DNA from: Psammoneis japonica
Taxonomy: Eukaryota
Assembly: GCA_008632985.1 (NCBI GenBank)
Contig: QPGO01000070.1
Coordinates: forward strand, 248,001 to 312,000
Reading direction: 5' to 3'
Length of the DNA stretch: 64,000 bases
Each line of letters begins with the position of its first letter. Within the stretch, counting starts at the first letter, position 1. Position numbers and translations under genes: made by a program. This document shows, in pieces, positions 29,880-60,324 of this stretch. The notes beneath the pieces are model-generated. The model was given only the letters and a program-made list of their open reading frames with translations. It did no database searches and was not told where the DNA came from.

Positions 29880-30125
29880 GTGCAAGCAAGTCTTGGTGAC
29901 CAGCAGGCAGTGTTGGCTTTGTTGGAAGCCATGTTTCTGAATTTCCACTGGAAAGTGGGTGCTGCTGCAGCTGTTGTGGACAAAATGAGCTCACACCACA
30001 GTGTGAGCATCAAAAAGGTGAATCTAGAATTGCTCAGAAGAAAAGCAAAAGACAAGAAACAATTGAGTGTCAGCAAGGGTGATGTGGCAGATGAGACATT
30101 TGTGGAGAACATGTTTGAAAAGAGC
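29880..30125 (+). pseudogene. Truncated first copy of the UDP-glucuronate 4-epimerase pseudogene (tandem duplication ~29521-30125 / ~30389-31015)
   Basis: VVDKMSSHHSVSIKKVNLELLRRKAK...KGDVADETFVENMFEK; upstream aaaaatttgaaagttga... repeated at 30389. Confidence 0.7.
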
Positions 30126-30801
30126 TTTGCTGAGAAAAGGGGTTTTTTCATGCACAGTTGCAGACATGCAAAAATGCGCACAATTTTGCACTCAAATTTT
30201 GATGAAATTTGTGCACAGAATTTGAATTGCATCTGGCACAAAGTCAATCATTTCATTGGTGTGTGGCTTGTCTAGATTGTCTGAAGCAATTGTCACTTTG
30301 GCCCTGGTTGATGGCATTGTGTTGCATCTCGATGTGAGTCTTTGGACAGTGTGTCTTGGTTCAGTGGCAGCATGGGGATGGACTGGTTCAAAAATTTGAA
30401 AGTTGACAGCAAATGCATTGTGTTCTCAGGACTCAACATGCTGCCAAAATCATCAATGTGCTTCATCGTGCAGATGCCACAGATGCAGTGCTGTCACTTG
30501 CATGTGTCACCTGGAGCCCTGCTCACACCAGTCTCTTTTCACTTTTCAATTGAAGTTTGCTGTTCACTCCATCACCAGTGAGAGTTGCCATGTGGTGGCA
30601 TTCATCAACAGTGCAACATGGTTGTTTGTCTTTGTCTTGTCAATTTCTCTGTTGCTTGTGCTGCAGCTTGTGCTCCAGCTTTTTGGGTTTCACGTGATGT
30701 GCAATTTTTGCACTTCACATCAAGCACTCATGCACCAAGCAGCAAGCAGCCTTTGCTTCCCAAGAATCATGTTCCCACAACATGGGCCATCACACATGGG
30801 G

Positions 30802-31650
30802 CACAATCAAGTCTTGGCAATGGGAGGTGCAGGCTTTGTCAGAAGTCATGTGTCTGAGCTTCTGTTGGAAAGAGGCAATGCCACAATTGCTGTGAATGGG
30901 GTGAATTTGCACCACAATGTGAGAGCATCAAAGAAGCAAATCTAGAAATTCTTAGAAGCACTCACAAAGGCAACATGGCAGATGAGATGTTTGTGAAGGG
31001 TGTATTTGAAAAGGAGTGACCAGAATGGATCTGTTGCATGGCAGAAAGAGCCAGGATTCAACCCAGTGTGGATGAACCTTTCACCCACATTTGCTCCAAC
31101 ATGGAGGGCACAATGCAGCCACTTGGGTTGTCTCATCAACGCAAGGTCAAGAGTTCTGTTTTTGCGCTGTTGTCCTCCCCTGTTGTTTGTGGCATGTCAA
31201 GATCCAGAGTTTTTGACAAAGCAATGCTGGCAGAAGATCATCCCATTGGCCCACACGCAACAACCCAGAAGGCAACCAAGTTGCTTTCATGCACCTTTCA
31301 TCATTTGCATGTGGACCCTGCAGTTGTCCTGGCATGGTGCCTTTTAAGTTTGTCAATGCGCTGGTCAAGGGCTGCCAACAGAGAAACACAGGCAAGGCAA
31401 TTTGATGCACAATTGCGCGCACATTTCCAACATTGTGCAGGGTGCTGTGCACGCCATTCTTGATTGGCCACAACCCACCTTTGAGGTGTTGGTTTTGGGC
31501 AAAGGTGGGCTAAATTCATTGCAAGACTTCACACAAATGGCAGAAAACACAGTGCGCAAGCAAGCCAATGTTGTCATCAAGGAAGAACATGCTCCAATGT
31601 TGCCAAGGCAAATTGTCTTTTTGGATGCAATCCAACAGCATCACCACCAG
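30802..31650 (+). pseudogene. Decayed NAD-dependent epimerase (UDP-glucuronate 4-epimerase-like)
   Basis: VLAMGGAGFVRSHVSELLLERG, MAERARIQPSVDEPF, PHATTQKATKLLSCTFHHLH (from PYAATKKAxELLAYTYHHLY), HISNIVQG and LGKG. Confidence 0.8.
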
Positions 31651-32284
31651 AACATGGAATTTGCCAAACCATGGAGTGTTGGGCAGCACAACCCATCAAA
31701 ACAGTTGAAGAGGTGGTGCCAACATCTTGGTTTGAGTGCAAATCATAAAAAAGTGCACTCCAACAGAAAACAAAGTCAAACAAAATACAAAAAGTGACAG
31801 CTGCTGCACGTCAAAACATTTTGAAACACAACAATTAAATGAAAGAGCTCCCCAATCATTTTTTTCCTGCAGCTTTCTGGTCAAACATTGCAGACCACAG
31901 ACATTTTCTGTGATTGGCAATTTCACGATGATTTGTGATTAAAAATGTTGAAACTGGACCTGCATTTCATCTGTGTCTCTGTCTGCAGCACTGTCAGTGA
32001 CGAAGGTTTGGGCTGCCAGCACTCTCTGCCAGAGCTGGCTTCAGAGCTGCTCCTTCAAGTTTGAAGAGTGCTGGGTGTGATGAAGCATCATCATGTGCCA
32101 TGACAGTGAGATGAGCTGGCAAGCTGGTCAAACACCCATGACTTGATCTTTTGCAAATTCATTGCAACACTTGCATGACTCAAGATTTCACCATGGAACC
32201 TTTTGTTGTTGCCATTGTTGTGATCTCATTCTTGATTTGCTGATTGATTTGCAATCCCTTCTAAAGTGCTTCATTTTGTCCACC

Positions 32285-32970
32285 ATGGGAGCCAAGTCTT
32301 CAAAGAGTGAGATGCCATTGGCACACAAATCCATTCAGGAAGGCACTTCTTGGGTGCAGGCAATCCAAGATGTTGAATGTTTGGACTGGAAACAGGGATT
32401 GTCAGATGACAAAATTCAAGCCCAAGCATTGCAACAGAATGATTTGCCAGTTCAGATGGCTGAACAAATCCATTTGGGAAATGCTCACAGCATGAGATCC
32501 ATTGCAACATTGAGAGCTCTGGAAATCATGGCAGCTTTGAACATGGCTGGGCTGCTTGCTTTGAAAAGAGCTGCAGTCAAGGCACATGAAGAGAGTGGCA
32601 CCTTGTGCCATTGCATCACTTCTGAACATGAGCCATTCTTTCATCCACTGCCAGAGAATTGCCAGAAAGAAGCTTTTGATTTTGTGAAGTCATCCACAAG
32701 AAAAAGCAAAGGAAAGTGCATCATTCATGACATGGTGGGAATGAGTTGGTCTGGTCTGGTTGCCACAGCCCACTGCATGATCATGACACAGACACTCGTC
32801 CAGTGCTGGAAACTGCAAAGCATGTTTGAAAGCAGCAAGAAACTGTGGCATCATGCAGCAAAGGCTTTCAGCAACAACAATTGGCAGCCATGGCTCAAGA
32901 GTGAACAATCTTCTTGGAGCAAAGCCCGGCATGGAAGCACCCACAGTCAAGGGTTGCCCGCCACTGCATG
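32285..32970 (+). pseudogene. Decayed dual-specificity phosphatase
   Basis: MGAKSSK start, IHLGNAHS, LNMAG, EAFDFV and GKCIIHDMVGMSWSG (degenerate VHCxAGxNRS). Confidence 0.75.
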
Positions 32971-35730
32971 ACTTTGATGCAATGTGTTCAATGCTTCTCT
33001 TGAGGACAGAGTTCATCCTCTTGAGAAGCTGTTGTCTTCATGCTGATGAGAGGATCTGGCAAGGAGTTTGCTGTGACACAATTCAAGCTGTCAAACACTC
33101 ATCTTTTGAGTGCCTTTGCATGCTGCTGGAGGCTGTCTGGCTTCTTCCAGTTTTAAATTTTTGCCTGATTTTGTGTCAGATGAATTTTCCTGTTGTGCAC
33201 CTGCTCACATGACACATGAATGTGAAAGTTTTGCATGAGCAGTCAGCACCAGGGAAGGTTTGATGCCAGAGCCCTTCTGTTCAAGACAAAGGCACCTCTT
33301 TGTTGGCTGTTGGCATCAACTCCACATGCTGGCTTCCACTGGCAGTGGTGCCTGGGGTTGCCAAAACAAGCTTGACAGAAGACTGGGGGCACAGGGCTGA
33401 GCATTGCACCAACCAAAAAAGTGAGAAGCACTCCAGTGGTGCACCCGCATGCACTCCGCATTGCCACACCTGCTTTCCTCTTTCAGCCAACTGATGCCAT
33501 CTGTCAGTTCTTGTCAGCACATGTTTTCCAACACACTCCTCAGCGCAAACATTTGTTGAAAGTGGTTGTTGTCATTTTTTCAACATTGGTCCTCCCAAGC
33601 TTTAGAGCAACTTTCTTGGGACTCTCCTTCCTGCATTCTCAACTCACAGCACTTCATTTTGCCCCATGCTTCCACAAGCAGTGGGTCAGCTTCTTGGTCA
33701 TCTTTCACAAAGAGCTCTCACCTTGCTTTCTTTTGAACTGAAGTGTGATGCTAAAATTTCCAAGCCTTGTCCACCTTTTCAGGGTGCTTCTCATCTCCAA
33801 GGCATGGCTTGTTTGAAGCCCATTCAACACACAACCAAATTCACACAAGTGTTGCTCAAAAATGTGACAGCTGAAAACTTGTTTTTGCAGTCTCATCACC
33901 AGGCTCAGAGGCAAGCTTGGCATTCTTTTCTGCAAGCAAGCCTTGCTGGCACAACCCAGCTGCAACTGTGGCACATTTCCAAAATCCCCAAGCGCACAAG
34001 CCACTTGTGGCAACAAGCCAGCTGGTCATCACCTTGCTCATCCCCAACAATGATGGCTGCTTTCTTTGTGCCTTAGAAACTCAAAGCATCCCACACTTCT
34101 TTTTGCACATGTCAAGTGCAACTTCCTTGACTGCTGCCAGCCATGAGCTCAGCAATGACAGATTTCTTTTCCAAGTCCTTGTGGCTCTCCAAGCTTTCCA
34201 CCCATTTAGCACAGCTTTGCCACACTGGTCAGCAACAGCAACAAATGCATTTGCTTTGCAGTCAAAGTTCTTTGCCTCATTGTTCATGCACTGATTGCAC
34301 CTCTTGCTGCTGGCGCCTCTTCAGACTGCCTTTTGTCACTGGTCACCAGCTTTGGAGAATGCCCAGCCTCAGCAAATGCTGTGCCCTGCAGGTGTGCAAC
34401 TGGTGTCCTCATTTGTGCTCTCTTGCACATTGTCCAATTTGTTTTGCAACATCTTTGCACTTGCTGAAACAAGCAGCATCACATGAGACACAATGGTGCA
34501 CTTTCACCCTTCACCTCTTTTGCTGCTCTGCCAACTTTGCTCTTTTGCTCCATCTTGACATTCAATCACTTTTTCAAGAGCAGCAGTGCCACATCTTCAA
34601 ACAGAGTGCAAAACAAACCTTTTCCAATCACTTCTTCAACCAGAGAGCAACAAACCTGCTTTTGTCAAAGTTTGGTGCCAGCTTAAATGTCCTGCAACTG
34701 GTGCCAACAGGGGGGCAATGTTGCAGGGCCCTGTGCTCCAAATTGAGAGATGGGCACTGAGCAAATTGTTGCAGAGTTTGCTGTTTTTGGCAACCTTTGA
34801 AAATTGCTCCTGAGTGGCTCACACTGCCACGGAACATTCAGCCAAGTGAGTTGTGCATTCTTCACTTTGCACGCACACATGAGAACTTTTTGTCCCTGAA
34901 TGAGGAGCTTTGCTCCAAGCTCATCTTGGTTCTTGCACAATGCACAGTAGCATTGAACCTGGACAAGCCTTCATTTACCAGGCATGATGACTCTGGCGGG
35001 GGAGGGGCAGTTGAGCACATTGTCCTCATGATGTGGGTCACTTGCAGCAGTTGGCCTGCACCAGTCATGTCAACACCTGCTCAGTGAATCAAGTGTGACT
35101 TGCATGGGCTTGTGCAGTGTGCACCTTTGGGTTGCACATCTCCTGCCACAAGAGCCTCACACAATGCAACACACTGCTGGCATCTGCCAGTTGCAAGCTC
35201 TTTGCACCATCCTTCTTGGAGGTTGGCAGCTCAGGTCTCACATTGCATCCTGTGAGGTGCCTTGTGGATTCCTTGGAGCAGTTTGTTGCTGCTCACAAGG
35301 CACACTCTAGAACAGCTGTTCACCAGCACTGGCTCCTTGAGCCACTGCTTGATGGCCTTGTTGGGATGAGCCTGCTGCAGAGGGGATGGCAGCGATTCCA
35401 GGGTGAGCGATTAGCCTTCAGACTCCTCCGGGATGATGGACATTGCCATTGCTTTGGACTCACAGACATTCGTCCTCGCCCAAAGCTCTTGTTGAAAGGT
35501 TAAAAAAACAAAAAATGGTGGCCACGTGTGCCACTGCTGGAACGGAAGAGATTTCATCTGAAAGGCCTTCCGCTCGAAACATGTAAATAAGCGGAAAGGT
35601 CACCTAAATGCAGTGCATCAGACAATGTTTTCTTAGACTCCCAATCTTTACGAAACACGGTGACGCGCTTCTTAAGTTAGGTTACTTCTTCCGAAACACG
35701 AACGGCGTTTGCGAAAACCACATTGTTTGT

Positions 35731-42479: not shown

Positions 42480-42652
42480 ATGATGGATTCACGCTTGTTG
42501 CATTGATTACCGGTACACACCATAGTTCGACCGGAAACGCGAACCGGCTGACACCGCATCACTGCTTCCGCAGGAAAGGGCATCAACGAAAGCAAAAAGC
42601 AATAACAGCTATCTAACTCTCTAAGAGCTAGTTAATCTATCATTATCATGCC

Positions 42653-43914
42653 ATGTCTCTGAGAAGATCCTCCCTTTAAGTCTACCGATCCTATGTGTTG
42701 GTCGAAGAGATGGTTCCGACGAACTTGGTTCGTTTCACAGAAAAACAAGAAGCAGTGTCACCCACGACCCAAGGCGACGACTGAAACGGAATGTTTTGCT
42801 TCGTAATGTCGCAGTTGATGACTCTCAAGGTGTTCACAGCAGAAAGCTTGCAGGGTCATGTTCGCAAGTCTCCTATGGGGAACTGGACCTACAACAAAAG
42901 GATTTGAATGAATTGCCCATGAATGAGCTCATGCTTCACCTTGCGAAGCCCCCTTTTGTCAATTCACCAAACCCAGACGGCCCAACTATTGCTGACATTA
43001 GTCTCTATGTCTACGAGATTGCAGATCTAGATCCGGGGGAGAATACGTTTTTCATGGAGGGATTCCTCGACCTTGTTTGGTGTGATCCTCGTCTGATTTT
43101 CAATGAGACTTCCGAGAATGTAACGACCAAGTACTTTCTGGAAAAGGACGCTGAAAAGGAGCTCGAGTTCATTTGGTTTCCGGACTTGTTCTTTGTAAAC
43201 GAAATTCTTCCTCGGCGGATTGAAAATGAGGAAGTCGTGGTTACTTCCGACGGAACGGTTGAGTATCGAGAAAAGTTTGGGGTCAAGTTGATGACAAACT
43301 ACGAAATGAAGCGATTCCCATTTGACTCTCAAGTACTGTTGGCAGAAATTGAATCCTTCGCTTGGTCGAGTGCTATTCTTGAGTTATCGGTAGAGCAAGA
43401 AATGGTGGGCTTCTCCGACGAGTTTGAAGTGCCCGAGTTTGACCTGACTGGATTACAAGAAATGGTGGTGGAGAGAATGGAGTTGCGTGACCGCCATCCC
43501 TTTTCCGAACTGGTGGTGGAGATCTATGTCAAGCGAGATCCGGCATATTACGTGACAAAGGTCATAATTCCGTTGACACTGATTGTCTGCATCTCATTTG
43601 CAGTCTTTTGGATGGACCCGTCCAACTTGGCAGATCGAATGAGCATCTCCTTCACGGGTGTCTTGACCTCAGTGGCATATCAGTTTATTGTCTCGGAAAG
43701 CCTTCCACGACACATTTACAACACCTTCTTGGACAATTTCGTTTTATTTTCCTTTGCCCTAATGGTATTTACAATTGTTGAAAATGTCGCCGTGAATGCA
43801 CTCTATACGAGAAACAAAGTGCACGAAAGCAACAAGGTTGACTTTTATTGTCGCATCATATTTCCAACCGTTTTTGCAGTGGGCGTGGGCATCATTGCGG
43901 CTGTGCATCTCTAG
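42653..43914 (+). CDS. Cys-less pentameric ligand-gated ion channel (GLIC/ELIC-like); start uncertain
   Basis: WCDPRL, IWFPDLFFVN, MKRFPFDSQ (Pro-loop without the disulfide), 4 TM helices and a very short M3-M4 loop. Confidence 0.88.
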
Positions 43915-44397: not shown

Positions 44398-47300
44398 TTA
44401 ACTTTCACACGCTTCCTCTGTTTGCTCTTGTGGTGGTGGTTGAAACGACGGGTTCTTGACCCACAATCCATCGACAAGCATCCATTTAAAGGCCGTCACC
44501 GGTTTGCCTCGTCTCTTCCACGAATTGCTGGGATAATTGTGAATACTCGCTCGGACTTGAGATTCATACGCTTCAATCAAATGAGACGCATTCTTAAAGC
44601 TGCGTCCATCCAAAGCACCACGATGGGGTGCGCGTCGACTAGCGGATGTTTCTTCTTCCTTGTGTTCCTTTTCTGTAATAAAGGCTTGTCCCAATTGACG
44701 CATTTCATAACGATAGGCATCACGAATGGGAAGGTAGGCGACTCGTGAAAGGTACATGCGAAAAATGGAATTAATCTTGGTAGCCGCCGTGGACTGCTCT
44801 GTGCTGCGTATCCGTTCCAACGCTTCAAAAGCCTTGTGACGTAAAAACACCTTGGTCTTGCCCAACTGTATACCCAACTTGGCCAAGTCACTGGCGCTGG
44901 GAGCAAAGCCACGACGAAAGGACGATGGGACCACGAAAGGTGGGTGTTGGAGCTGGTGGCGGTGGAGCTGCTGCGCTTGCTGCCGTCGACGTATCGGGGC
45001 TCTTGGCCCATGGAGGATAATTCTTGAGCTTGGACGGAGCCGTTTTGGGTGCGGGTGGCAAGCCAGCACTACCGCCATGTGACGATGATCCATTGGACGA
45101 CCGCGCCTTCCACGACGGCGGTGGAGTTGCCGTTTGGTACGAATACGATTTTGCCTTGACGGGAGCTTGGGATGGAGTCGCACTAGCATTGCCGCCGTCA
45201 CTTGCTCCTTCTGGAACATTTTCTTTTCCCTCCTCCTTTTCTAGCTGCAAGAGTTTCTTGTAAATAACCTTTAGCAACTCCTTGCACTGTTGCTTGGCAT
45301 TCGGCGCCGGTGGCGCTTCGGGTGACGACGATGCTGCGGCTGCCGGTGAGCTACCAAACGACGCGCTGCGAGGAGTTCCGGGGTGTACCCCATCGCTTTC
45401 CGGTATACGTGCTCTTGGCTGGACTGGGACTTGCTACGGCTCCTCCTCCCTTGTTGGCCCAACTCGGCAAATTGCTATTGCCATTATTCAAATTGTTGTT
45501 GTTGTTTAGTTTCATTTCTTTCAATGCCAATCCACGGTATCGACGATAAAAGTCCGCGTGTGGATAATGTTGTGTAAAACCCGCTCGACTGACACGAACC
45601 GCTTCCAAAATACCACCACAACGCAACTGTTCGGCAATCACCACGGCATCAAAGCGATCCGGTACCAAGTGATCGTTGGGTTTGAGACAACGGATATAAT
45701 GCGGTGACGTCAAATCGATTTTGGTTCGTAAATTCTTGAGCTGTCGACGAAACTGACCACCCACTGTCATGGTTTTGGCCAAGGCGGATGAATCGGTGCG
45801 CTTGAGCTTGTACGGCATAGTACTAGCGGAATGATGATGACTGCTATTGTTGTTGTTGTCCATGCTATTCTTGTCATTGCCCTCGACAAGAATTTCCGCC
45901 AAATGCTGAACAAAGGGATTGCCACTCGCTTTGAGTAATTCGGTCGATTCCTTGGGCAACTCATCACGGTTCTTTTCAATAAACCCATCGGCCGTGTATT
46001 CGACGGGACCGGCATAATGATCAATCTCAACCGTTGCACCGCTTGTTGTTTACGACTCGCTTGGAACCGCGGTTGTCCACGACACTTGTTGTAAATGTCG
46101 GACGCAAACGATCGGTCCGTCGTTCCCGGGGCACGGCATTGATCGTCCAAAATGTTCAAAATCCCCATGCCGCGCTTGTCAATCAAATCCAAAACGTCCT
46201 GATTTTCGGGAAAGGCAATAAAGGACCATTCAATGCCCTCGCGTTCGTATTCGGCCTGTTCATTCTTCAAAACAAAGGCATTGAATTGTTGCTGCAGCGC
46301 TTCGTTGCAATAATTAATGCACAATTGTTCAAAGGAATTCGTTGTAAAGGACTCGAAACCAAAAATATCCAAGACCCCAATCGTCGCCGCAGGCCTGGAC
46401 CACGTGTCATCCTCAATCACATCACCGTCGTCATTGACATGAGGTTTGTACGCAATGGAATCATTAATGCGTCTCACCAAATACGTAAAGAGCGATCCAT
46501 ACGTGGCTTTAATCAATGCCTCCAATCCCTTGTACGCTTTGGGTTGTGACACGTGACGTCGCACCGATTCCATCCCACCCGCTTGAATATGAAAATAACA
46601 AAGGGCTTCATTCAAATCGTGTGGTGTCACACCCAACAAGTGACAGACGGGTTGCAAATGAACATTGTCAAAATCCAATTCACACTCTTCTTCTTCTATA
46701 GCATCAAAGGTCAAATTGGAACTGTGCAAGAGTGCCGCAACAATACGGAAAATTTCCGTCTGTTCAATGGCATCGAATTTCATCATTTCCATGGCCACCC
46801 GCAATGCCTTGTAGGTTTCTCCATCCTTGACACCATCTCGACGATCCAACGTTCCCGAATGTGTCATTTGAAAATCATCCGGTGTGGCCGTTTTGGCAAT
46901 AAACAAATTCCGTAATTCCTTTTCCGACATGCCCTCGAGTATTTCAAAAAACACGTGATAATTCCGTTCTCCACTCGATTGTGTCACGAGACGGACCTTT
47001 TCTAGCAGATAGGTTTCAATGGTGGCACCCACCAATTTACCCGAACGGGTAAATTGAATCTCGATGAATTTACCAAATCGACTCGAATTGTCATTGCGAA
47101 CCGTACGGGCATTACCAAAGGATTCCAAAATGGGATTCGATTGCAACACTTGGGCTTCAATGGAATTTTTGTTGTTATTCGACGAAAGGGATGTCGTCGA
47201 GAGACCCAAATCCATACTGTCCATGCGAGAAACAGGAGAGAAGTATTGTTATTGTTGTTGGTTGCCCAAGATGGCTGGTTTGTTGGAGACTTGGGACTCG

Positions 47301-48174
47301 TAGCTGCTGCTTGTTGCAATTCACGAGACTTTTCAAAAGCACGTTTGGGTGTCGTCTTGATGGATCGTTGCGATAGTGCTGCCAAATACTTCATGACAAA
47401 TTTCGTCGTGACCGTCTTGCCCGCACCACTTTCACCCGACACCAAAATGGATTGATTGCAACAACACTCTTCGGTAGAAGAAGAATCAATCGTTTCATCC
47501 ATGCGTCTCATCATGCTTCGAAAGGAAGCATCGGCAATGGCATAAACGTGGGGTGGTAACGTATTATTGGTACGCTTCTTCTTTTGCAAACTACTACTAC
47601 TCGCATCCCAATATCGTTTCATGGTGGCTTCTCCATAAAGACCACGAACATGTTTGAATGGATTCAACGCCAACAGCACGGGCCCCGTTGCCGTATAGAT
47701 TGTATCGTGAGTGTACCAATGTTCCAAACAATGCACGACGGCGGGTTCATGCAAATGAGTCAATTGAATCAAATCACGGGGATATTGCAGTGAACCCGTC
47801 TCTGGATGACGGGGAAGTTCGTTATCCAACAAGACTTGACCCGTTTGCAACACACTTGCCGGCAATACCAACGTATCGTCACCAACATCATCATCAAGTT
47901 TCACCACGACACCACCGTCTTGATGACAACTATCCAACATACTTCCCAACATCCAACCCCATTGTTGATTACGACCATGTTGTTGTTGTTGAGAAGTGGA
48001 ACTGCTGCTCTTGGCAGAAATGCTACCCGCATCACTCTCGGCATCTAAACTCTTGCTATTCACTAATGCAACAGCACCACGTCCGAAACGAGGTATTTTA
48101 GGGTTACGAATTGCATCAATTACACTTGCCTTGATCCAAACGCGTGTAGTTGCTTCGGATGATGATAATGACAT
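44398..48174 (-). CDS. Myosin heavy chain with short tail; several apparent frameshifts
   Basis: GESGAGKT, NPILESFGNARTVRNDNSSRFGKF, LDIFGFE, PHYIRCLKPN, QLGKTKVFLR and one IQ-like motif. Confidence 0.93.
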
Positions 48175-48600
48175 TGTTGTAATTGTAATTGTAGCGGCAG
48201 TTTGTTTTTGTTGTACGTACTGTAGAGCATGGCGGTGGTGGTGTTGCAGGCAGAAAATCTTTTGCTTCGTCTCCGCCCGGCTAACTTGCGCGCGTTGAAT
48301 GTTTAAATTCCAATGATTGGTCCTCATATCCATAATAAATTATTAGTCGTGTCTTGCGATCAACGTACTGTACGGTAAGTGGATTTGCATAGATGCAATG
48401 TCAGTCCCGAACCTACCGTTGGTCATTTTATTCAATGATACAGATAATAAACTTGATACTAATATAGTCATGTGGGATAGAAAATTGAAAAACTGAATAT
48501 CCATGAATATGTTGATAAATAGACTTCCAATGAGAAGCTGACTTGTTCGACCCAATTCGATCTCCCCGTTGAGTTTAAACATGCTGTGCAGCACGGCAGG

Positions 48601-48793
48601 AATGAAATTCTCATGTGCATCCGCATCTCTGTCGAATGCGCACCGGTGCAACCTGCCGTTGCCCAACTTTTCCAACATTTCCCTGGAATGCCCGCCGCCT
48701 CCGAATGTTGCATCTGCACACTGTGGACACCACAGGGCTTCATGGCCAGGTGGCCCACGTGGGGACGGACCTGGCCGGCACGTGAGGGAGCAT
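48601..48793 (-). pseudogene. rsmH: N-terminal fragment of RsmH/MraW 16S rRNA m4C methyltransferase
   Basis: MLPHVP...HLAMKPCGVH...ADATFGGGGHSREMLEKLGNGRLH..AFDRDADA across frameshifts. Confidence 0.75.
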
Positions 48794-48851
48794 CTCTGCA
48801 CCAACTCTCTCCAGCTGGAGGGCCCTCTGCTGGTGTCCAGTCCACCAAGGA

Positions 48852-49129
48852 CCTCAATTGAGGCAAAAACCTCAATTGAGGATGGTGCAAATTGTGTGGA
48901 ATTTGACAGACCGAACGGCGATGCCGGCCAGAATTTTTTTAAGGACTGAAAAACATTTTTGCGAGGGCAGGCATTTACATCGCTGAAATCAACACACTCT
49001 GAGACACAAACTCCACATGTGTTGTGTCTTGCGACTGCAGAGTTTTTGTGCTCGAATCACTGGGAGTTAAGCGACCATTTGGCATCTCTGGCAGGACACC
49101 CACGTAGAACATGCGATCCTCAATTGAGG
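48852..49129. repeat. Three copies of the palindrome CCTCAATTGAGG
   Basis: At ~48852, ~48870 and ~49118. Confidence 0.8.
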
Positions 49130-50577
49130 AAAAATTCCCCGGCAGACTAGACACCAGCCAGCCAAGTGGCAGGAAGGGGACACGGAAAGTCGGGGGAACC
49201 CAAAAAGATGGTGGAATTCTGTCAAATGTGTGTGCTTTTTCTCACTCAAATTTCAACTGTGTGACAAAAACCTTCTGAACACACGTGCTTTTAACGCAGA
49301 TTTAAAAGCTGCGTCTGAGTGCGAAAAAGCAGCATCACCAAGATTTTGTGGGCATGTTGCAGCATTTTGCTGTCATGAACCCGATGACAACACTGCACTG
49401 CTCCCACAGAATGCCTGGATGGCTTCAGCCAAGCTGTTTGAATGGCTTGAAATCGTCTGTTCCATCGCAGACAATCATTGTCGATCGTCGCTTGGTGCAG
49501 ATTTTTGATTTTTGTCATGGCAGAAGATGGGGCTTGGCACAAAAAATTGAGCATGACATCACAAGCACAAGTTCTGCACCATGCTGCACGACAATTTTCC
49601 ACCGTCTTTGCGGGATTGTGTGAAAATGGTGCTTTCGCTGCAAGCACAACTCCATTGCGAACCTGAGCTGGAGAAAAGCACAAACACAGTCTGTTGCCAC
49701 CGGATGCACAGATGAGCTTTTTGACGTGTTCCAGCCGCACGTGAACCAAATCGTGCACAAAAATGACATTTGCGCGATTTTTGCGCAGTCCCCAACTTGC
49801 AATCGAACTTTCACCACCAAAAGCACAGATTTGTGCAAATGCAAATGTTTTGCAACACTGGCAAGACTCGTGTGAGTGTTGCAACATCATTGTTGTTGTG
49901 CTGTCTGTGTTTTTCATTGAGTTAAAAGATTCGCAACACAACGGATGATTTTCGGTGAAAATGTTGCCGTCACTTGGATGTCACCTAAATGTGTCTTTCT
50001 ATGATGCCACTTGGCAGGTTTTCCACCTGCAAAAAAATCTCAGCATAAATCTGCTGATGTGCAATCAGTGTTGAGTCTGCTGAGGAAGTTTGTGACACAT
50101 GTCCCATGAGGATTTGAACACCCCTCAAAAAACTGTTTAAATGTTCACACTCTAGGAGCCTACAAAAGTCAATCCGTCCAAGCATTTTTGTTAAAATGCT
50201 GCATGCACTAAAACACACGTGAATTGCACTCAAAATCCGATTGTCATTTTGTGCATCACCTGGGACTGGAACACGTCTTTTGTTGATTGTCGGTGCACGA
50301 ATTGCAACTGACCTCAAAACATTCAAGCTCAAAAATTCCACCGTCTTTCCGCGCCTCCTTCCTGCGGTGCTGTGATGACTCTTGTCACGATTTTGCACAC
50401 CAGCTGGACAATTCTCCATGCCTTCCAGATGGGCATGCACACCATGATGCCAGCACCGCACGCGCACCGCACCACGATGCAAAACAACAGTCTGTTTGTC
50501 CACCCAGGCGTGGTTCCTTTTCTTCTTTTTTTGACAATGTTGGATGATGTGTGTTTTGACACAAGCCAGCTTCAGCC

Positions 50578-50928
50578 ACAAGTGCCGCCAAAAAACTCAA
50601 AAACTGACATCCTCGTCGGGCAAGCAAAGTGGATTTTGGCCATTTTACGAGAAAAATGAAGCAGAGTTTTTGCTTGTTTCTGCTGGCTTTCTATGGGTGA
50701 TCTCAGCAATTTCTGCACGTCGCTCCGAAGAATGAAGAAAAGCACAAACAACCTGTTCTGCATGGGGTCTCACTCGCGCGACAGCGCGCACGACCACCAA
50801 GATTTTCTTGCACTGGGAGCTCGTTTTCTTACAAAAAAGCAGCTTTCAGGCAAGTGGAAAGTAGATTTTGAGCTGTTTGCCAAGAAAACGTCATGATGTC
50901 AGTCTTTGATTTTTTCGGTGGCACTTGT
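50578..50928. mobile_element. MITE-like element with ~35-bp imperfect terminal inverted repeats
   Basis: acaagtgccgccaaaaaactcaaaaactgacatc vs gatgtcagtctttgattttttcggtggcacttgt. Confidence 0.5.
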
Positions 50929-53879
50929 CAGCCAGCTAAAAGAGCCACGATGAATGCCCCGCAGCTTCCTTCCACTCGAGAGGAGATCATTGTGCACTTG
51001 GTGTTTGGCGATGGAGGCACCCATGATGGCTGGGAGATGTGCTCTGTTGCGCTCTTTCCTTTTGTGTTTGGAATTCCAACAGGACAGGTCTGCCTGACCA
51101 CAAGCGAAGCGGTGAGGCAGCGCGCAGCCACGGCTGACCTGTTGCGGCTTCAAGTGGAAAGCCGCGATGAGCTCTTGTCGACGAACCGACCGCCAGATGA
51201 CGCAGAACATTTCCCCGCTGGCTGTGATTCTTGCTTGCGGGAAATCTGTTGCAGTCATGGGAGCAGCTTTAAAGACATGGCCACAGCACCTCCATGCTCG
51301 ATTTGGGTGATCACGGGGCATGGATTCCCAGTGATCCGGGCCTGCGTCATGCAAACAAGGACAAGTGACGGAGCAAGCCATCAAATCCCTTTCACCGACT
51401 TGCCTGGACCTGCTCCTTCCATTCTTTCCATCATTGACATTTGTGGTTCGCAATGGGATGCCGCTGCCACATTTGGCTGTTTTGCCGCAAATCCAAACAG
51501 GAAATTGAAGAAACGCCGCGAGAGAGTCGCCGCAAGCGATGCCCCTTTTGCCTGCGAAAACGCTGATGCTGCATGGGCTTTTCGGGTTGGGGCCGCGGGT
51601 GATCGTCTGAATCCTCCCAGTGATGAAGACGCTCTTTCGAAAGCTTTCGGGGATGTTGTCGTCTGTTCTGTTCTTGCCGCCGCAAAGGACTTTGCCGACA
51701 ACGACCTCACAGGAACAGACATGGGCTCCCTTTTTGTCCAAAAAATTTCCTGATTGAGTGCTCATCACCGTGACAGGAATGTCCCTGAGAAACATGTGTC
51801 CAACCCAAAAGCCAACCTGCACCGTCCACAGGCGCTGATGCAACATGGACTGTTGGAATTGAATCAGGATGCTTTCAATTGCAGTCTGTTTGCTCGCCAG
51901 AACGAATGGTTCTTGACCCGAGCTCGGATGTGACCTTCTGCTGTGGCGGAAGCCAAGTCCAATCTTGATTGACTGTGTTGTGGTCTGTTTGCAGGCATGG
52001 CACTGCAGCCACCGAAATGCCGTGGATCGTTTGGAGTCGCGTGCAGAGAAACTTTGGTCAAGGCTGTCAGGTTCACTCGGTCCAGGAATCTGCACAACCA
52101 ATGTTCGCCTTGATTGGGACGAGGAAAGAAATTCTCTTGTGCGCTCCGATGATGGGATGCCAATTGAAGCCTGGGCCTTGCCTTGTGGAGATTTGGTGAG
52201 GATTTCTCATCATGTGACAAACATGACAGTCAATGGCAGTTGGGATGACGAGGAGGGGTCTTCGGACGTGGAGCAACCGCCGGCACAAGAAAGCACAGGA
52301 ACAGCAGATGGCGCAGAAGAGAGAGAAACGGCCACAGAAGCAAATGGAGTAGACACAGACAAGGAAAGGTCGCGTCCCACAGTTTCTGCTTAATCGACAT
52401 CCCACAGTTCGACTGTGGAACAACCCATCTGCTGCTCGAGCTCAACCCCAAACCTGCAGTGGTTGTTCTTGTGGGTGTTTGGAGGTGGCAGGCAAAGAGG
52501 TCTCTCGCTGTGATGGTTGAAGAATGAGCCGGATCTTGTGATGGTTCTTTTGCCCATTAGAGTTCGAAACGTGCTGTCGGACGAAAGAGCGCTCCAACTT
52601 CAACAGCTTCCATGGACACACCTGAAGTTGTGTTTGCTTCACCGGCTGAACGCAAGCAGGCCCCATGCGATCAAAGCAATCTTCAAAGGCAAGTTTGTAA
52701 TGTTGTCATTTGTTGACAAACAATTGATTGTTGGTGATTTTTATTTTAAGTTGTCAACACCAAACATTTTAGTTCATTTCACTGTCAACAGGTGGGACAC
52801 TCTCCATCTGGTCACCAGGGCAAAATCTTGTGGTTTGAAGGCTTCTTAGAGGTGGTGCTTTTCCCATCCCACCAACGCACTTCCGTGTTGATGAAAACTG
52901 GCTTCAAGTGGCATCAAGGAGTGCACGGCAAATGTCCCATGAACGTAAGATGAGATTTGTAGAAAAGAACATTTCCAAATGCACCCAAACTGCTGCCAGG
53001 ACAACGGGAGAACTTGCCAGAAAGCAAAGGAAAAATTCCGGTCAATCACGCTCTGGCAGGACTCCCAAAAACTCAGCATGCTGGAGTTTTTTAGGCCAGC
53101 TTCCCCATCTTGCATCGGAAATTTGGTCCCGGAATGCCAACAACGGATCGCGAAAGACGCGGGGGCAGAAGCAGAATCCCACCTGCGGAACATCAACAGG
53201 CAAAACACAGCAACACCGCCACCCGCCACACTTCATGCAAAACACAGTGACACCACCACACTTCACAAAAAGACAAAACAACTGTGTCATTCTGCCTTTC
53301 ATGAGCTCACAGGTGTTCCTTCGAGAAAGGAGACAAGCAAACAATCTTCATTCATTGAGTTCAAGACCGACCCAAAGACAGATCTTTTGGTTGGCATCAT
53401 CCTGTCACAAGAAGATTTGAGGGGTTTTGGATCCGTTCTCTTTGGGTGATGGTGTTGCAGCTCCCTTGCAATCCAGCACATTCACTCCATTTTCACTGAC
53501 CAGCAACCCCATGCCAGCCATGCTTCGCCAATCTGCCCAAAAAGCCATTGCAGTGCTGCGCCACTCCTGGAACAGCAGTCAGCAGTCTTTGTTTTCTTCC
53601 CTGAGGACCACCCCCGGTGTTGGCTTGTGGCTGCTGCTTCTGCCACACTTGCGGTGGCAGCGACGCATGGCCAAGAAGAAGAGAAAGCGCTGGAAGAACA
53701 AGCAGCTGTGGCAATGTCTCCTCGACGGTTCAATGAGGAACCAAAGAACAGCATTCAAATGGCTGCTGCATTGCAGAGTCATCACCCATTCCGTTCCTTG
53801 GCAAGTTTTGCCATTCCAACCAACATCGCGGCACGTGTGAGTTTCTCATGCCCACTGGACCAATGCCACAACTCTTGAC

Positions 53880-54542
53880 GAAACAACAAATGGCTGATTT
53901 CTTGGCAGCAGATGTCCCCTGACTTTGTGATGAGATGGCCTCCTTTCACAACCAGCCACCCCTTTTCTCTCCAGGGCCTTGTCAGAGCAGCAAAGTTTGG
54001 GTGCATCCCCGCGACAAGACAACAGCTCAAGAGTCGGGCATCATCTCTGCAACTGTTGCAAGGACTTTGGTTGCTCAAAAAGCCAGCATCAACCAAATGA
54101 TTCTTGAGTTGCTTCCGCAATGCCATGACGTCTGACAAGGCATGGTTGTCCAGAGCGCGCAAGATGCAAAACTCGCGTTGGTCATGAAAATTCTTCTTGC
54201 GAGACCAAGCTTCGTGCAGCTGCAATCATGTTGCCTTCCACGGCCCCACCTCTCCAATCCTTCCCTCCACAATCACTTTCAATGAGTTGCTTGCGAAGGT
54301 CCAAGGCTTTCTTCCACTGCTCATCTTCCGCCATCCACCCCCAACGACTGAGGAAGAACCATCTGTTGGTTGAAAGAGCCGCCGTGACCGTCAACACCGG
54401 GTCAACACAGTCTCCAGAATGCACCCGACCAGAAGAACCTTGCCAATTTTTGCATCCATTGGCAGTCTTGACAAGTGGTGACCCAGTGGCGTCAGACGAT
54501 GCAAAGTCCTTTTGTTCTGTCCATTGTCACGAGTGCGCCGAG
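53880..54542 (-). pseudogene. Decayed C-terminal fragment of a DEAH-box RNA helicase (HA2/OB region), split by the LTR element; continues at ~59993-60030
   Basis: AACQHLVE|LGALV...LTPLGHHLSRLPMDAKIGKVLLVGCIL...CVDPVLTVTAALS; CLVAGMHPN. Confidence 0.8.
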
Positions 54543-54716
54543 TGCAAGCTCAAGCTGAGGTTGATGTCAAAACAAAGAAGTGAGTAGACCGAAGAGAGGG
54601 AGAGCCCAAGCATCAGCGAGTGCTGGGGAGCGCTGGCGAGCCCTCTCAAACGGCTGCGTTAACCCAACATCCAAAATCAATGCTGTGTGTCAGAAGCATG
54701 CGAGTGAGTTACTGCA
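54543..54716 (-). repeat. 3' LTR
   Basis: Matches 59820-59987 with 14 substitutions and a 6-bp duplication (caagct) by manual alignment. Confidence 0.93.
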
Positions 54717-54838
54717 CTCTTCCCTTCCATGATCCGAAAGAACCAGAGGATCATGCAAAGGGCCAAAACTAGAAACCAAAACCCAAAGAAATCATGACAG
54801 TGGGAGGAAACCCAGGTGTTGGGAAGAAAACCCCCTGA

Positions 54839-57800
54839 TCAACCACGAAAAGGAATCAGGTGCCGAATGTTGAGGCGCTCAACCACATGAGGAGCTCGAC
54901 GAAGCGAAAGCATGCCATTCACATGCACTTGAACAATGGGACAAGGGCCATGAGCATGAGGCTCGAGTCTGGACGGGTCAACCGACTTGATTGGAACTTG
55001 ATCACCCACTTGACAATCGTGGGATCTTCTCTTGGCATTGGCTCTTTGCAAATTGTCGTTGATCAGCATCTGGCGATGGCCTTGGATCATCAACAAGTCA
55101 GCTGGTGCAGGGACATCTAGGATCATGTCACGTCCGAACACCACAGCACCAGGTGAAGTCTGCAAAGAACGGGAAACAGCACAGCGAGTTGCACACATTG
55201 CAGTTGCCAAAGCATCGTCCACAAGGCTAGCTGCATTTTGAAGATTTTGAGGTGGATTAGAAGCAATGAGCGTGTGCAACACATTGCCGATGGTTTGGTG
55301 CATTCATTCACAAATGGCGTTGGCTTGAGGGTTGTACGACGTAGTCGGCACATCGTCAATTCCGGCTTGTTGCAACAGCATCTGAAAATCGCACCCGGTG
55401 AACTCGCCGCCGTCATCGTAGATGCATCGATTCGGTCTGGGATGGCGTGCAAGCCAGCAGTTTTCAAATTGGTTGGCAACATGTCGGGCAGTTTTATTTT
55501 CAATTCTCACAAGTTCAACAAGATTGGAGACAGGATCAATGCAGGTCAATGCCCGAAACTCAATCTCTCCATTCGGCACTTTGATTTTCCACGGGCCAAT
55601 GAGGTCAACCGCCGCTTCCGACCAGGGAGTTAATGGGGCTTCTCGCTCGGGCAACTCTCCACAGCCAGGACCCAAAGTTTTGTTGCGTTGGCAATCAGCA
55701 CAAGAGCGTTCATCACACATGCGACGCAACCCAGGATGACAACAATGAGCCTGGATCGTTTCACGCACACGCTGGCTTCCGGCATGGCCAAGGACGAGAT
55801 GACACCACCGCAAGATGTCGGGCACAAGCGCAGTCGGCAAACAGATTTTCCACTGTCCTGGAGGATCATTCGGTCACGTGCGACAACACACAAGCGGTCG
55901 ATCATTCACATGTTCCACGAGGAAACGATCAGGGTGAGCAACGTGCATCTGGTTCAACTGTTGGTCCTCGAACTGGTGCTCTTGAATGCGTTGTGACATC
56001 ATCGGATTCTGCATCTCTTGCATCGTAGGGCAATTCAAGAAAGAATCGAACAGTTCCGGCTCATCCACAAAGAAAGAGAAGAAGTGTGAGTGGCACTCAT
56101 TTTCAATGTTGCGACAACACTTGAATCGGCATGCACCGAGCTCCAAGTCCTCATCGCGGAAATCCTCAACTTCGGATGGTTCCTCACTCGGCACCAACTT
56201 CGAATCGAGCGGAGCAAAATCAACAACAGTTCCTTTACCCGGAGCCAAGCTCTTCCCTTCAGAGGGAGGATCCGCATGAGGCAAACAAGAAAAACAATCA
56301 GCCAAGACATTCAATCAGCCTTCAATGCAATGAAACTGAGGAGAAAAGTCTTCCAGAAAGAGTTGCCAATGAAGCACGCACTGTGAATTCAAGGTGCAAA
56401 AGGCAAGGTTCTTGTGGTCAGTGAATGCATGCAAGTCGCCGCCAAGGAGCATCGATCGGCATTCTCGGAAGCACATGACAATGGCCAACAGTTCTTTTTC
56501 GATCGTTGAGCAGTTTTGTTGCGCCGCATTTAGCTTTCGAGACCAGCATGCAACAGGTTTTCCATCCTGCACAATCACTGCGCCCATCTGGTGATCACTG
56601 GCATCGGTGTAGACATGGAAGGGTTTGTTGTGATTCGGATGTGCCATTGATGTTTCGGCCGCTGGGACTGCTTTCATCTCATCGAACGCCGCCTGACATT
56701 CCGTTGTCCACGTCCATGAGCCTTCACCTGTAAGATCTGTCAAGGGTTTTGACAGGTGAGAACGCCAAGGCCACACATTGCGACAATGCGTTGCAGCGCC
56801 AAGGAACGAATGAAGCTGCTTGATGTTTTCCGGAGGTTGCATTCGCAGGACAGCCTCCACCTTTTTCTTCCACGGACAAATTCCAGTCGGGGTTGGCCAA
56901 TGCCCAAGGAAATCCGTTTCCTGCACACACCATTCGCATTTCAAGGGATTTACTTTGAACCCAGCTTCTTCCAAGCATTGTAAGAGTTCATCAAGACGGT
57001 CAAGGTGAATGTCAAAGTCATCATCAAATTGAGCGAGATCATCAATGTGCGCATCAACGTCCAAGTCGTGCACAGTTTTCTCAATCAAACATTGCGCAAT
57101 GTCTGGAGCCGGCTTCAGACCCATTGCCAAATGGCAGTGTCGGCACTTTCCAAAGGGTGTCACGATTGTTGTCAATCCTTGGAATCGTCACTCAATTCGA
57201 ACGTGTGGCACATCATTGAGAGGTCCAATTTGGTCAAAAACTTGCACCCGGCTCTCTTCTGCAGCACATCTTGAATGATCAGCAAAGGACAAACCTTGCG
57301 CTTGAGGGCTTTGTTGAGTTCCCGAAAATCGCTGAGCCACCGCACTCGACCATCCTTCTTCGGCCGAATAAAAGCACCAGCAGCCCATTCCGTTGTTCCG
57401 GCTTCTTCAAGAATGCCAAGAGCCACCAAATGATCCAGTTCTCGTTTGAAAGTCTCGAGATCATTGTGCGGCACTGCACGCACTCGAGAATGGTGAGGAA
57501 CAGCGTCAGGATCAATGTCAAGGTGAACTTTTTCGCCAGCATGCTTGCCAAGAGTGCCATCAAAAAGAGCAGTGTGTTTTTCCAATGCGAGGCGTAATTT
57601 TTCTTGATGTTCGGCAGTGAGATGCTTTTGAGCCGACGCTGCTTCAGAAGGGGACGTCTCCTCATGCTTTGCATCGAGGATGTGGCTGTCCCATGCATCA
57701 TCATCGTTGGCCAGCTCATCAGTCAATTCGTCAAGCCACTGCTGGATGCCAATCCGATGGTTTCTTGGTTTCATTGCAATGCTTGAATCAAGCCACTTGA

Positions 57801-58212
57801 CAATTCCGTGTTTGAAATCTAACATGATGCCTGCTCTCGCCAAGAAGTCCTGTCCAAGGATCATGTCGTGCTGGCAAGGTGAGTCAAACACATGCGCATG
57901 CATGCCATCAACACGTTTGGTCTTGTCAAATTCAGGGAGCACCACATCCCGCAGTCGAACGTAATGAGTGGATTTGAATTCTCCCGCCAACGTCCAAAAC
58001 TTCGCAACAATTGGTCCTGTGTCCTCCAATGCTGGTGCCACTCCAACTGGCAACACCCAAGCATGAATCATTGAATGGGTTCCACCAGAGTGAGTGACAC
58101 CCGCATCACGCACTTGCTTTCCTTGTCTTGAATGAATCACGCCGCGAATGAGGTTGCAGGGACCACGTTTAAAGGTTTGGTTGGTTTTGTTTTTGGGGTT
58201 GGTGCAGCGCAC
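54839..58212 (-). pseudogene. pol: gypsy pol (protease, RT, RNase H, integrase), with stops and frameshifts
   Basis: DMILGQDFL, PKKDGRVR..DFRELN, HIDD (from YIDD), YTDASD...EKELLAI...TDHKNL, VDLIGP and NPQANAICE. Confidence 0.92.
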
Positions 58213-58379
58213 TCAAGTCCCACATCGTCTTCGTCATTCACAATGTAATTTTCAAAATCGTCATCATCAAACAAATCAGCAGCATGTGCATGACAATCAT
58301 CAACGCAATCAGTGCAATCATCAAACACACAGGAATCAGGAGCGACACACTCGGACGACAGCTCTTCAAGCTCATTGGG

Positions 58380-59619
58380 TCAGTGTCGACCGCGTCCCGA
58401 GAAGCGACCACCAGGTCGAAAACTTCCCGCTCCACCTCGATGCTCACGAGGCCCTCCTGTGGAATCAAGATGATGGCTTTCAGCAGGCCAATCATTGGGA
58501 GGAGCCATTCTGGCCAGATTGCCGTAACCGCCGCCATCTGCATTGGTTCGGGTGTCGTTTTGACATTGCATGTAGGAGCCACCATCTTCATGATGCTCGC
58601 CGCTGTTGCCACCAGAGTTGCAGTTTCCTCGACCGCCACAATTTCCTCGGCCACCACCACGACCTTGATGGCCACGGCCTTGCCAGCCACGACCTTGATT
58701 TCTGCCACAACCACGACCTCCACCACGACCGCCACCTCGACCACCACGGCCACCACATCCGCAACCGCCACGATCAGTTCTTGGACGGCAGTTGTTGGAG
58801 TCGGGATTCATGGCGCAATCTTTCCACTTGTGATTGTGAGTGTGCAACGGACATTGGGATTCTGGGTCAATGCGATTGCCTTTCTTCTTGTTCGAGCCGC
58901 CTTCATGCTGTCCATCTTTGTGCTTTTTTGACGTCTTCTTGTTCCCACCCGCAAACGATTTCTCCGTGCTCATGTGCTTGACCATTTCCGCCAGTGCATC
59001 ATCTCCAATCATGCGTCCTGCCTGCTCTTGTGCACATCTCACGCCACGACAGAGGGAAGCCATCGAAAATCATCTTCTTTTTCTGGTTCTGAGCAATGAC
59101 TGGATTATTTCCCGGCAACTTGTTTGTGCATTGCACCAAAGTTTCCATTCGATCCGCGTGTGCCTGTGCTTCAACGTCATGCGGCTTTTTAAGAGCAAGC
59201 AAGCATTCAATCATCGTGTCACGAGCTTCAGTTTCACAATGCGACAAACAAAGATGAGCCAACTCTTGGTCGAAACGAGCTGCCGTCTTCTGCTCATCCG
59301 GAATTGCCATGGTGAGATTGGACCATTTGTCTTCAGCTGCACCCGCCAATGCTTCTTCAAAATTGTCAAACAATTCTTCTCCTGCAGTGAATTCGAGTTT
59401 TGCAGCCAGTTTACCAAAACGATCTTCTACAAACAACAACGCTTCAATTCCATCACTTCCGTCAAAACAAGGGCACTTTTTCGTGCGCGTGCTGCCATCA
59501 TCGTGCGATTGAGTCAATTTTGCGAGCTCCAAATCCGAATGAGCAAATTTCGCAGCATGCAAAATGCACGGTTCCTTGAGGCTCTCGTGATTGCTCATCA
59601 GGCCAAGTTGGTCCACCAA
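58380..59619 (-). pseudogene. gag: gypsy gag-like ORF with Cys/His knuckle and Gly/Arg-rich tail
   Basis: Position between the 5' LTR and pol; CPLHTHNHKWKDC; RGG-rich segment. Confidence 0.75.
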
Positions 59620-59819
59620 GAAACTGTTTCAAGTGCTCTACCTTCGATTCGAGTTGTGCCACCCAAATCGCCAAATCCTGTTTGCGTTGTTTTCGTGTCT
59701 CCTTTTCTCGTTTTTGTTCCAAAGCCCAATTCGCTGCCTTCGCTCTCAAAGTTCTTTTCTGTTGTTTCGCAAGCCTGTCAGTTGCATCGTTGTTTCTCAT
59801 TCAGCTCTTTACAATCGAC

Positions 59820-59987
59820 TGCAAGCTGAGGTTGATGTCAAAACAAAGAAGTGAGTAGACCGAAGAGAGGGAGAGCCTAAGCGTCAGCGAGTGCTGGCGA
59901 GCGCTGGCGAGCCCTCTCAAACGGCTACGTTAATCTAACATCCAAAATTAATGCTACACATTAGAAGCGTGCGAGTGAGTTACTGCA
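59820..59987 (-). repeat. 5' LTR
   Basis: See 3' LTR; followed on the + strand by TSD CCGAG. Confidence 0.93.
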
Positions 59988-60324
59988 CCGAGACCTCGAC
60001 CAGGTGCTGACACGCCGCAACTACTTGGGTAACATGTTAAATTACCGTACATAGGGCCTAGTTATGAAAAACTCTATACCGGTATCATGCATTTCACCCC
60101 AAAATGAGTGGCCCACGAGCGACAATCCCGCTTTTACACCAACGTGGAATTCTACGAACAGTCGTATGGTACAGTACCACGAAACGACGTGGTGCGCGCA
60201 ACATGATGACGGGTGTGCGACTGGATGCACGACAGCATTGCAAAAAGAGTTTATTGTTGTTGGCAGAGAGACAACAACATAAAAGTAGAAACTCTTTTTT
60301 TTTTTACAACAAGAGAAACATTAA

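Follow-up and report, generated by a model that had tools for sequence, protein, structure and literature searches.

TpA loss in the body, 3' LTR and single-copy flank of a Ty3/gypsy retrotransposon points to domain-bounded mutation after insertion in a diatom-like stramenopile

The window, i.e. the whole stretch of 64,000 nucleotides that was analysed, carries intron-poor genes encoding: a silicon transporter (5083-6855, minus strand; Pfam E = 5e-151), a Cys-loop ligand-gated channel (42625-43914, plus strand) and a myosin (45767-48339, minus strand). These genes assign the window to a diatom-like stramenopile, and the named relatives of the silicon transporter gene, like those of the mobile element described below, belong to diatoms and Parmales. 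The window is interrupted by five blocks with abrupt edges in which TpA is almost missing (0-8 per 500 bp, versus roughly 10-40 elsewhere) and CA/TG is over-represented: 1-1000, about 9500-11700, 19700-21700, 23500-35500 and 48550-59850. The first four are poor in CpG as well (observed/expected 0.04-0.25 for CpG, 0-0.2 for TpA and 1.7-2.2 for CA/TG); they occupy intergenic spaces, with no more than a few hundred bases between their ends and the genes.

The fifth block holds a degenerate Ty3/gypsy LTR retrotransposon on the minus strand (54543-59987). A direct repeat of 167 nt (54551-54717 and 59822-59988; 92% identity, start-to-start spacing 5271) is embedded in two minus-strand LTRs with TG..CA ends: an inner one of 174 bp at 54543-54716, which has one extra CAAGCT, and an outer one of 168 bp at 59820-59987. 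The 5-bp target-site duplication CCGAG is found directly to the left of the inner LTR (54538-54542) and directly to the right of the outer LTR (59988-59992), and repeat, ends and duplication together confirm the LTR boundaries that had been drawn earlier from the letters of the window alone. The inner LTR is adjoined by a polypurine tract (54717-54728, minus strand; GGAAGGGAAGAG in the minus-strand reading), which identifies the inner LTR as the 3' LTR and the outer LTR as the 5' LTR. The pol region (54845-58212, minus strand) has the order protease, reverse transcriptase (RT), RNase H, integrase. Its Pfam matches, all on the minus strand, comprised: rve and Integrase_H2C2 at 55304-55840, RT_RNaseH_2, RT_RNaseH and RVT_1 at 56315-57175, and a weak protease match under the curated cut-off at 57172-58212 (E = 0.009). 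Save for one frameshift near 57175 and three in-frame stops, pol is collinear with polyproteins of about 1100 aa; the catalytic YxDD motif of the RT reads HIDD. The gag/leader region (58213-59819, minus strand), in which TpA is sparse up to 59810, had no Pfam match. Terminal repeats with TG..CA ends, a short target duplication and this order of pol domains are the marks of Ty3/gypsy elements, and it is the combination of LTRs, CCGAG duplication, polypurine tract and minus-strand pol on which the identification rests. Neither another copy of the family nor a second young LTR pair was recovered from the window by blastn or by blastn on the purine/pyrimidine-collapsed window, for which a shuffled control reached up to 93 bits. 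A degenerate LTR pattern gave 0 matches in metagenome contigs and 0 in viral contigs, both LTRs had no blastn match in 77 related metagenome loci, and a short-fragment protein search did not find a copy of the same family (best match 72% identity).

The two LTRs differ by exactly 14 substitutions, 13 transitions and one transversion, which reproduces the count given in the sequence-only reading, and the individual steps on which that reading had relied could all be located. At six steps (outer 59878, 59926, 59936, 59949, 59955 and 59962) TA of the outer LTR stands opposite CA or TG of the inner one; at two (outer 59882 and 59968) outer CG stands opposite inner CA; and at two neighbouring ones outer CA stands opposite inner TG, which accounts for four substitutions in a run that reads TACACAT in the outer and TGTGTGT in the inner LTR. 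A single transition lies outside the pyrimidine-purine steps (T at outer 59934, C at inner 54663), and the sole transversion falls within a CG (C at outer 59898, G at inner 54627). The transitions are therefore concentrated in pyrimidine-purine steps (12 of 13, with such steps covering 82 of the 168 positions; P = 0.0013), and at all eight single-step differences it is the outer LTR whose step, TA or CG, is self-complementary (sign test, 0.008). Written as purines and pyrimidines only, the LTRs have an identity of 99.4%. The outer LTR contains 9 TA, 10 CA, 12 TG and 10 CG (TpA observed/expected 0.89), the inner LTR 3 TA, 15 CA, 16 TG and 7 CG (0.33). The K2P distance between the LTRs is 0.091, as against 1 difference in 168 positions outside the pyrimidine-purine steps, and the expectation that dating by LTR divergence would be inflated is thereby borne out for this pair.

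The block around the element (48550-59850) contains 0-8 TA per 500 bp, compared with roughly 10-40 outside, and has a TpA/ApT ratio of 0.08-0.16, a CA/TG observed/expected of about 1.3-1.8 and a CpG observed/expected that is only mildly reduced (0.4-1.05). Its right edge lies between 59810 and 59878, that is, at the start of the outer LTR: the interior of the element is equally TA-poor right up to 59810, TA is dense from 59856, and the right flank is normal in TpA from 60022 onward. The compositional edge and the insertion site coincide to within 35 bp. The left edge was found at about 48520-48576, adjoining the start of the myosin gene, and the block thus continues for about 6 kb to the left past the inner LTR, through the flank 48550-54542; no TA was seen at 53501-54584. 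The flank is single copy at 54000-54433, with a depth of 64 versus 865-4079 on the element in the one sequencing run that contains the locus (X1), and its minus-strand ORF at 50902-52206 had one repetitive match only among 1.84 billion representative proteins; it may be unique DNA that was caught in a mutated domain. CpG makes up 0.040 of all steps in the left flank, 0.052 in the element and 0.008-0.014 in the old blocks. Because the level of the flank is near that of the element and not that of the old blocks, flank and element seem to have lost TpA at one time, and the flank not long before; it may, alternatively, have been depleted prior to the insertion.

The other blocks bear the same imprint in a more advanced form of CpG loss. 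The share of pyrimidine-purine steps among all steps is 0.234-0.253 in the blocks and 0.243 outside, from which it follows that the blocks arose from ordinary sequence by conversion of TA and CG to CA/TG, with the purine/pyrimidine skeleton intact. Few TAA and TAG stop triplets are left (2.1 per kb and 1.5 per kb, respectively, versus 7.5 each outside; TGA 22.8 per kb), and this gives rise to the long overlapping ORFs that are observed on both strands in the blocks (e.g. 50872-52206); a Pfam search of 147 ORFs of the TpA-poor blocks yielded 0 matches at the curated cut-off and 5 weak sub-threshold ones. The older block at 23500-35500, which is without TpA and without CpG, contains two diverged repeat pairs. 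The arms of an inverted repeat (25188-25373 and 25374-25559) are 64% identical as bases and 83% identical as purine/pyrimidine when aligned without gaps; a gapped alignment gives 37 transitions and 11 transversions between them, and CA stands against TG at 8 of 35 pyrimidine-purine steps. The copies of a direct repeat (29507-30115 and 30374-31035) differ by 128 transitions and 68 transversions, with CA against TG at 22 of 109 such steps. About 4.5% would be expected from the transition rates (P = 1e-4 for the inverted and 6e-9 for the direct repeat), and around 19% if each TA and CG that existed when the repeat was duplicated had since been resolved in the two copies independently of each other. 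The TA steps that survive in the blocks have a distinct context: their 5' neighbour (both strands) is T in 48%, C in 28%, G in 19% and A in 5% of the cases, versus 21, 22, 31 and 26%, respectively, outside the blocks (118 block sites versus 1284 non-block sites, chi-square P = 3e-26). Enrichment is 6-fold for TTAA and 3.4-fold for CTAA; GTAC and ATAC are reduced to about 0.1-fold, and no ATAT remains. This suggests a process that prefers purine-T-A-pyrimidine.

The direction of change was derived from the pol proteins and from related DNA loci. The conceptual pol translation, with stops as X, was aligned to 40 homologues of at least 1000 aa (the first by id order among the 120 listed), and columns were scored where the consensus reached at least 70% among these 40 polyproteins. 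At the 23 columns with conserved Tyr the element has His 10 times, Cys 10 times, Arg twice and Tyr once, and the conserved Arg columns (38) retain 23 Arg, next to 7 His, 3 Gln, 3 Cys, 1 Trp and 1 stop. The residues that would be lost by the opposite change were nearly all kept: His at 12 of 14 columns (Tyr 1, Cys 1), Cys at 14 of 14, Gln at 14 of 15 and Trp at 14 of 14, the latter two without a single stop. A comparison with 12 related DNA loci over the RT-RNase H region gave the same picture: ten conserved TA steps are CA (5), TG (4) or TA (1) in the element, and none of the 31 conserved CA (14) and TG (17) steps has become TA. Replacement of Tyr by His or Cys and the losses of Arg, with virtually no conserved CA/TG turned into TA, identify the changes as TA to CA/TG and CG to CA/TG. 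The equal numbers of His and Cys (10 : 10) further indicate that T-to-C and A-to-G were equally frequent on the coding strand and that both strands were hit; along pol the order of the two replacements gave no evidence for strand-clustered events (8 runs versus 11 expected, z about -1.4, calculated by hand). The family is not TpA-poor by nature, since TpA observed/expected is 0.45-1.08 in the 77 related metagenome elements (median 0.73) versus 0.09 in the interior of the element, and Tyr makes up 2.6-4.9% of residues in all of the 120 listed homologues versus 0.3-1.1% in the element. The direction from TA to CA/TG, the dinucleotide context and the strand symmetry of the change are established by these comparisons, as are the edges of the domain by the distribution of TpA. 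In two protein fragments from elsewhere a comparable pattern was noticed: P0349 (Logan source), of another gypsy family, is without Tyr and has Cys or His at conserved Tyr positions, and P0305 (JGI source), a fragment of another gypsy family from another assembly, is partly changed and has little Tyr. These two of the 120 fragments examined are, judged by their residues, possible further cases of hypermutation.

Other copies of the family could be read in X1, in which the family is abundant (summed contig depth 865-4079 on the element versus about 60 on the flanks); the element was not covered in the runs X2 and X3. The variable places among the copies were 428 of the transition and 58 of the transversion type. 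Of these 486 places 40 were listed, and among the listed ones 54663 is the only one of the 14 LTR sites that is readable by depth: in the other copies T, the outer-LTR base, accounts for 869 of 954 depth units. One contig of another copy spans 54661-54691 and has the outer-LTR state at both 54663 and 54665 (the latter TA). A third state is present in it at two sites: 54678, where the outer LTR has TA, the inner LTR CA and the contig TG, and 54685, where these are TA, TG and CA, respectively; under any history such three-state sites require at least one event from TA to CA/TG. At 54691 the contig has CA, like the inner LTR, which is either a parallel mutation or a point against the TA-erasing direction. 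Polarisation by other copies thus extends to 4-5 of the 14 LTR sites only. The 38 listed rows that fall within the element comprised: 13 with CpG-to-TpG/CpA changes private to the window copy, two in which other copies have TA and the window copy CA/TG, two with the reverse (55342 and 59428, TA in the window and CA in nearly all other copies), two pairs of rows with TG in the window copy and CA elsewhere, and other kinds of change in the remaining 17. The private CpG losses (13 of the 38 listed rows) imply that a good part of the recent change of the window copy is CpG decay and not TpA loss. In other copies the LTR end is 11 bases longer and has a TA/TG polymorphism, with 542 depth units for TA (TAATTAC and TTAC) and 244 for TG (TAATTGC, CTGC and TTGC). 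At 54663, 58948 and 59342 the window copy has ACC where nearly all other copies have ATC, and these sites may represent a minor second context for T-to-C.

Our reading of the locus has to be weighed against four others, two of which concern whether TA was lost at all. In the ordinary direction of change both LTRs would have been TpA-poor at insertion, and the outer LTR would later have gained TA by C-to-T at CpA/TpG, in a RIP-like manner or by decay of 5-methylcytosine; the sequence-only reading had itself pointed to a consensus of CA/TG at these sites as the opposite case. The inner-LTR state of the other copy at 54691 agrees with such a history, and so do 55342 and 59428 among the 38 listed element rows. 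Such a history would, however, further require two gains of CG from CA in the outer LTR, other copies have T at 54663 and TA at 54665, and the TpA/ApT ratio of the block is the opposite of a RIP signature. Wherever the direction could be tested it ran the other way (Tyr to His/Cys at 20 of 23 columns, conserved CA/TG to TA at 0 of 31 steps, no stops at conserved Gln and Trp, and one Tyr in the 28 conserved His and Cys columns taken together), and we regard a gain of TA as barely credible. It is just as hard to believe that the TA steps were never lost and that a modified base in silenced DNA was systematically misread, with TA called as CA/TG in the assembly. X1 is possibly the source data of the assembly itself, its library type not being on record, and would then repeat such an error; yet its contigs stand at full single-copy depth (28-66) with distinct fixed states per copy, and the depleted flank is reproduced in it with 2 differences in 561 bases. 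Moreover, the saturated CpG loss of the other blocks is part of the signature, which also matches what was measured from Illumina data in the alga Bigelowiella natans.

The other two alternatives accept the loss of TA and differ in when and how the LTRs became unequal. That the LTRs are identical at insertion, as the sequence-only reading had assumed, has a loophole in retrovirus biology: the minus strand of the 3' LTR stays exposed after plus-strand strong-stop synthesis, and editing of the cDNA from that point may mark the 3' LTR alone. ADAR- or APOBEC-like editing of RNA or cDNA before integration, with the 3' LTR edited more than the 5' LTR, would agree with the fact that the 3' LTR is the more changed one and with the richness in transitions of the other family copies (428 versus 58 transversion places). 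It should, however, affect one strand only, whereas His and Cys are balanced in pol and both T-to-C and A-to-G are present in the inner LTR; it would not reach about 6 kb into a single-copy flank that was never part of the RNA, and repeat pairs outside the element, in another block, have the same independent resolution into CA and TG. We therefore judge it very unlikely. The asymmetry could also have arisen with the direction of change as proposed in the sequence-only reading, if ectopic gene conversion had refreshed the outer LTR from an unmutated copy. The depth of the family on the element attests to potential donors, but the target duplication is intact, the passage from TpA-poor to TpA-normal at the outer LTR runs straight into the normal flank and so is a compositional edge, and no conversion tract is demonstrable; this makes gene conversion an improbable source of the difference.

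We consider, with a probability of roughly 0.8, that the element inserted undepleted and was afterwards changed on the chromosome by a domain-bounded conversion of TA to CA/TG, along with a slower decay of CpG. At insertion the element must have had at least the TpA content of the outer LTR, which is normal; it was accordingly not depleted on arrival, and its interior and 3' LTR were changed at the site of insertion. In the proposed sequence of events a Ty3/gypsy retrotransposon of normal TpA content would have inserted and created the CCGAG duplication, after which context-specific transitions would have turned 5'-TA-3' into CA or TG (A:T to G:C), on either strand with equal likelihood. The process would have acted across a sharply bounded domain that comprises the body of the element, the 3' LTR and, on the left, some 6 kb of single-copy DNA, and that would end at the start of the 5' LTR, leaving the latter almost unchanged from its sequence at insertion. 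Ordinary decay of CpG to TpG/CpA would have proceeded more slowly within the same domain, so that the 3' LTR would have lost 6-9 of 9-12 TA and 2-3 of 10 CG; the counts in the inner LTR accordingly have TpA loss running ahead of CpG loss. The claim of the earlier reading that the change took place after insertion and in the chromosome is supported by the intact target duplication, by the strand symmetry and by the extension of TpA loss into the single-copy flank, and the independent CA/TG resolution in the older repeat pairs at 23500-35500 adds further, indirect support for an action on chromosomal DNA. Its claim of position dependence is supported for this one LTR pair: the outer LTR, at the edge of the block, is indeed less affected, though as a step and not a gradient. 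Since the process affected the two LTRs unequally although they are copies of one repeat, a purely homology-triggered targeting as in RIP fits badly, and a positional domain fits better. Such a domain could be either silent chromatin that is bounded by the neighbouring genes or a unit that is transcribed leftward from the 5' LTR. We infer that the chemistry would be, by analogy with what was proposed for Bigelowiella natans, deamination of adenine in DNA to inosine, which is read as G, with a mutagenic modification of thymine as the alternative, and that the process probably serves as genome defence.

The only close precedent that we found is a 2026 preprint on the alga Bigelowiella natans, in which integrated giant-virus and virophage DNA undergoes TpA-specific hypermutation (Mettrop et al., bioRxiv 10.64898/2026.01.13.699255). 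According to that preprint, 230 of 231 mutations in the integrated viral regions of mutation-accumulation lines were A-to-G or T-to-C, all of these on TpA; the mutation rate of two integrated viral regions is about 1000-fold that of the remaining genome; reverse transcriptase and DDE domains are over-represented among coding sequences with little TpA; and adenine deamination in DNA is proposed, with an ADAT2-like deaminase as the agent (bioRxiv 10.64898/2026.01.13.699255). It makes no mention of diatoms or of a wider sequence context (bioRxiv 10.64898/2026.01.13.699255), and the literature searched yielded no account of diatom transposons that have lost TpA. The two cases share A:T-to-G:C transitions at TpA that yield TpG/CpA on either strand, as well as discrete chromosomal regions in which long-term TpA depletion is coupled to a gain of CpA and TpG, in B. 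natans in foreign DNA. In our window the A-to-G and T-to-C changes at TpA are not exclusive, being accompanied by CpG decay and a few other transitions, and the evidence that DNA already in the chromosome was acted on is indirect. The cases differ in several respects: B. natans is a rhizarian, whereas the host here is a silicon-transporter-bearing, diatom-like stramenopile; the targets there are integrated viruses, whereas the recognisable target here is an LTR retrotransposon; TpA observed/expected is 0.45 in the B. natans viral region and 0.02-0.1 here, which is a near-complete depletion; CpG decay goes alongside here; and the rate was measured there, whereas our evidence is comparative.

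With better-known systems the likeness is partial. RIP of ascomycete fungi is also a post-integration, transition-only and dinucleotide-specific decay of mobile DNA in sharply bounded tracts, and it inflates LTR dating too. Its chemistry and polarity are nevertheless opposite, for it converts CpA to TpA and raises TpA, whereas here TpA is erased, and its homology targeting contrasts with the unequal treatment of two LTRs of the same repeat and with the affected single-copy flank. RIP itself was rejected as the process at this locus, with TpA/ApT at 0.08-0.16 in the block and conserved CA/TG turned into TA at 0 of 31 steps. Decay of 5-methylcytosine at CpG has its counterpart here in the change of CG to TG/CA at 15 of the 38 conserved Arg columns and in 13 of the 38 listed element rows, and it is saturated in the other blocks; it cannot cause the loss of TpA, and it is slower here (2-3 of 10 CG versus 6-9 of 9-12 TA in the inner LTR). 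APOBEC3 and ADAR likewise inactivate retroelements by deaminase-type, context-dependent transitions, but these are strand-asymmetric and confined to the element, whereas the changes described here are strand-symmetric, unequal between the LTRs and extend into the flank. Pre-integration editing of this type was rejected as well, in view of the His to Cys balance of 10 : 10 and the depleted flank.

A broader proposal is tentative and may well prove wrong: diatom-like stramenopiles would possess a domain-targeted DNA-editing defence that converts virtually every TpA in silenced DNA, including unique DNA inside the domain, to CpA/TpG, with the preference for purine-T-A-pyrimidine as the fingerprint of the enzyme; it would be the same, possibly ancient, system as in Bigelowiella natans and hence widespread across the SAR supergroup. 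If our reading of the locus is true, it provides a second example, far removed in phylogeny from the first, of genome defence by A:T-to-G:C mutation at TpA. A TpA-erasing process would be the functional analogue and mirror image of fungal RIP, in a group that includes the ecologically dominant diatoms. To the precedent of B. natans the LTR pair would add: that retrotransposons are targets after their integration, that the edge of a domain is able to cut through an element, and that TpA loss outpaces CpG decay. In genomes with such a process ages based on LTR divergence would be inflated, spurious long ORFs on both strands would mislead gene callers, and mutated elements would be missed by homology searches.
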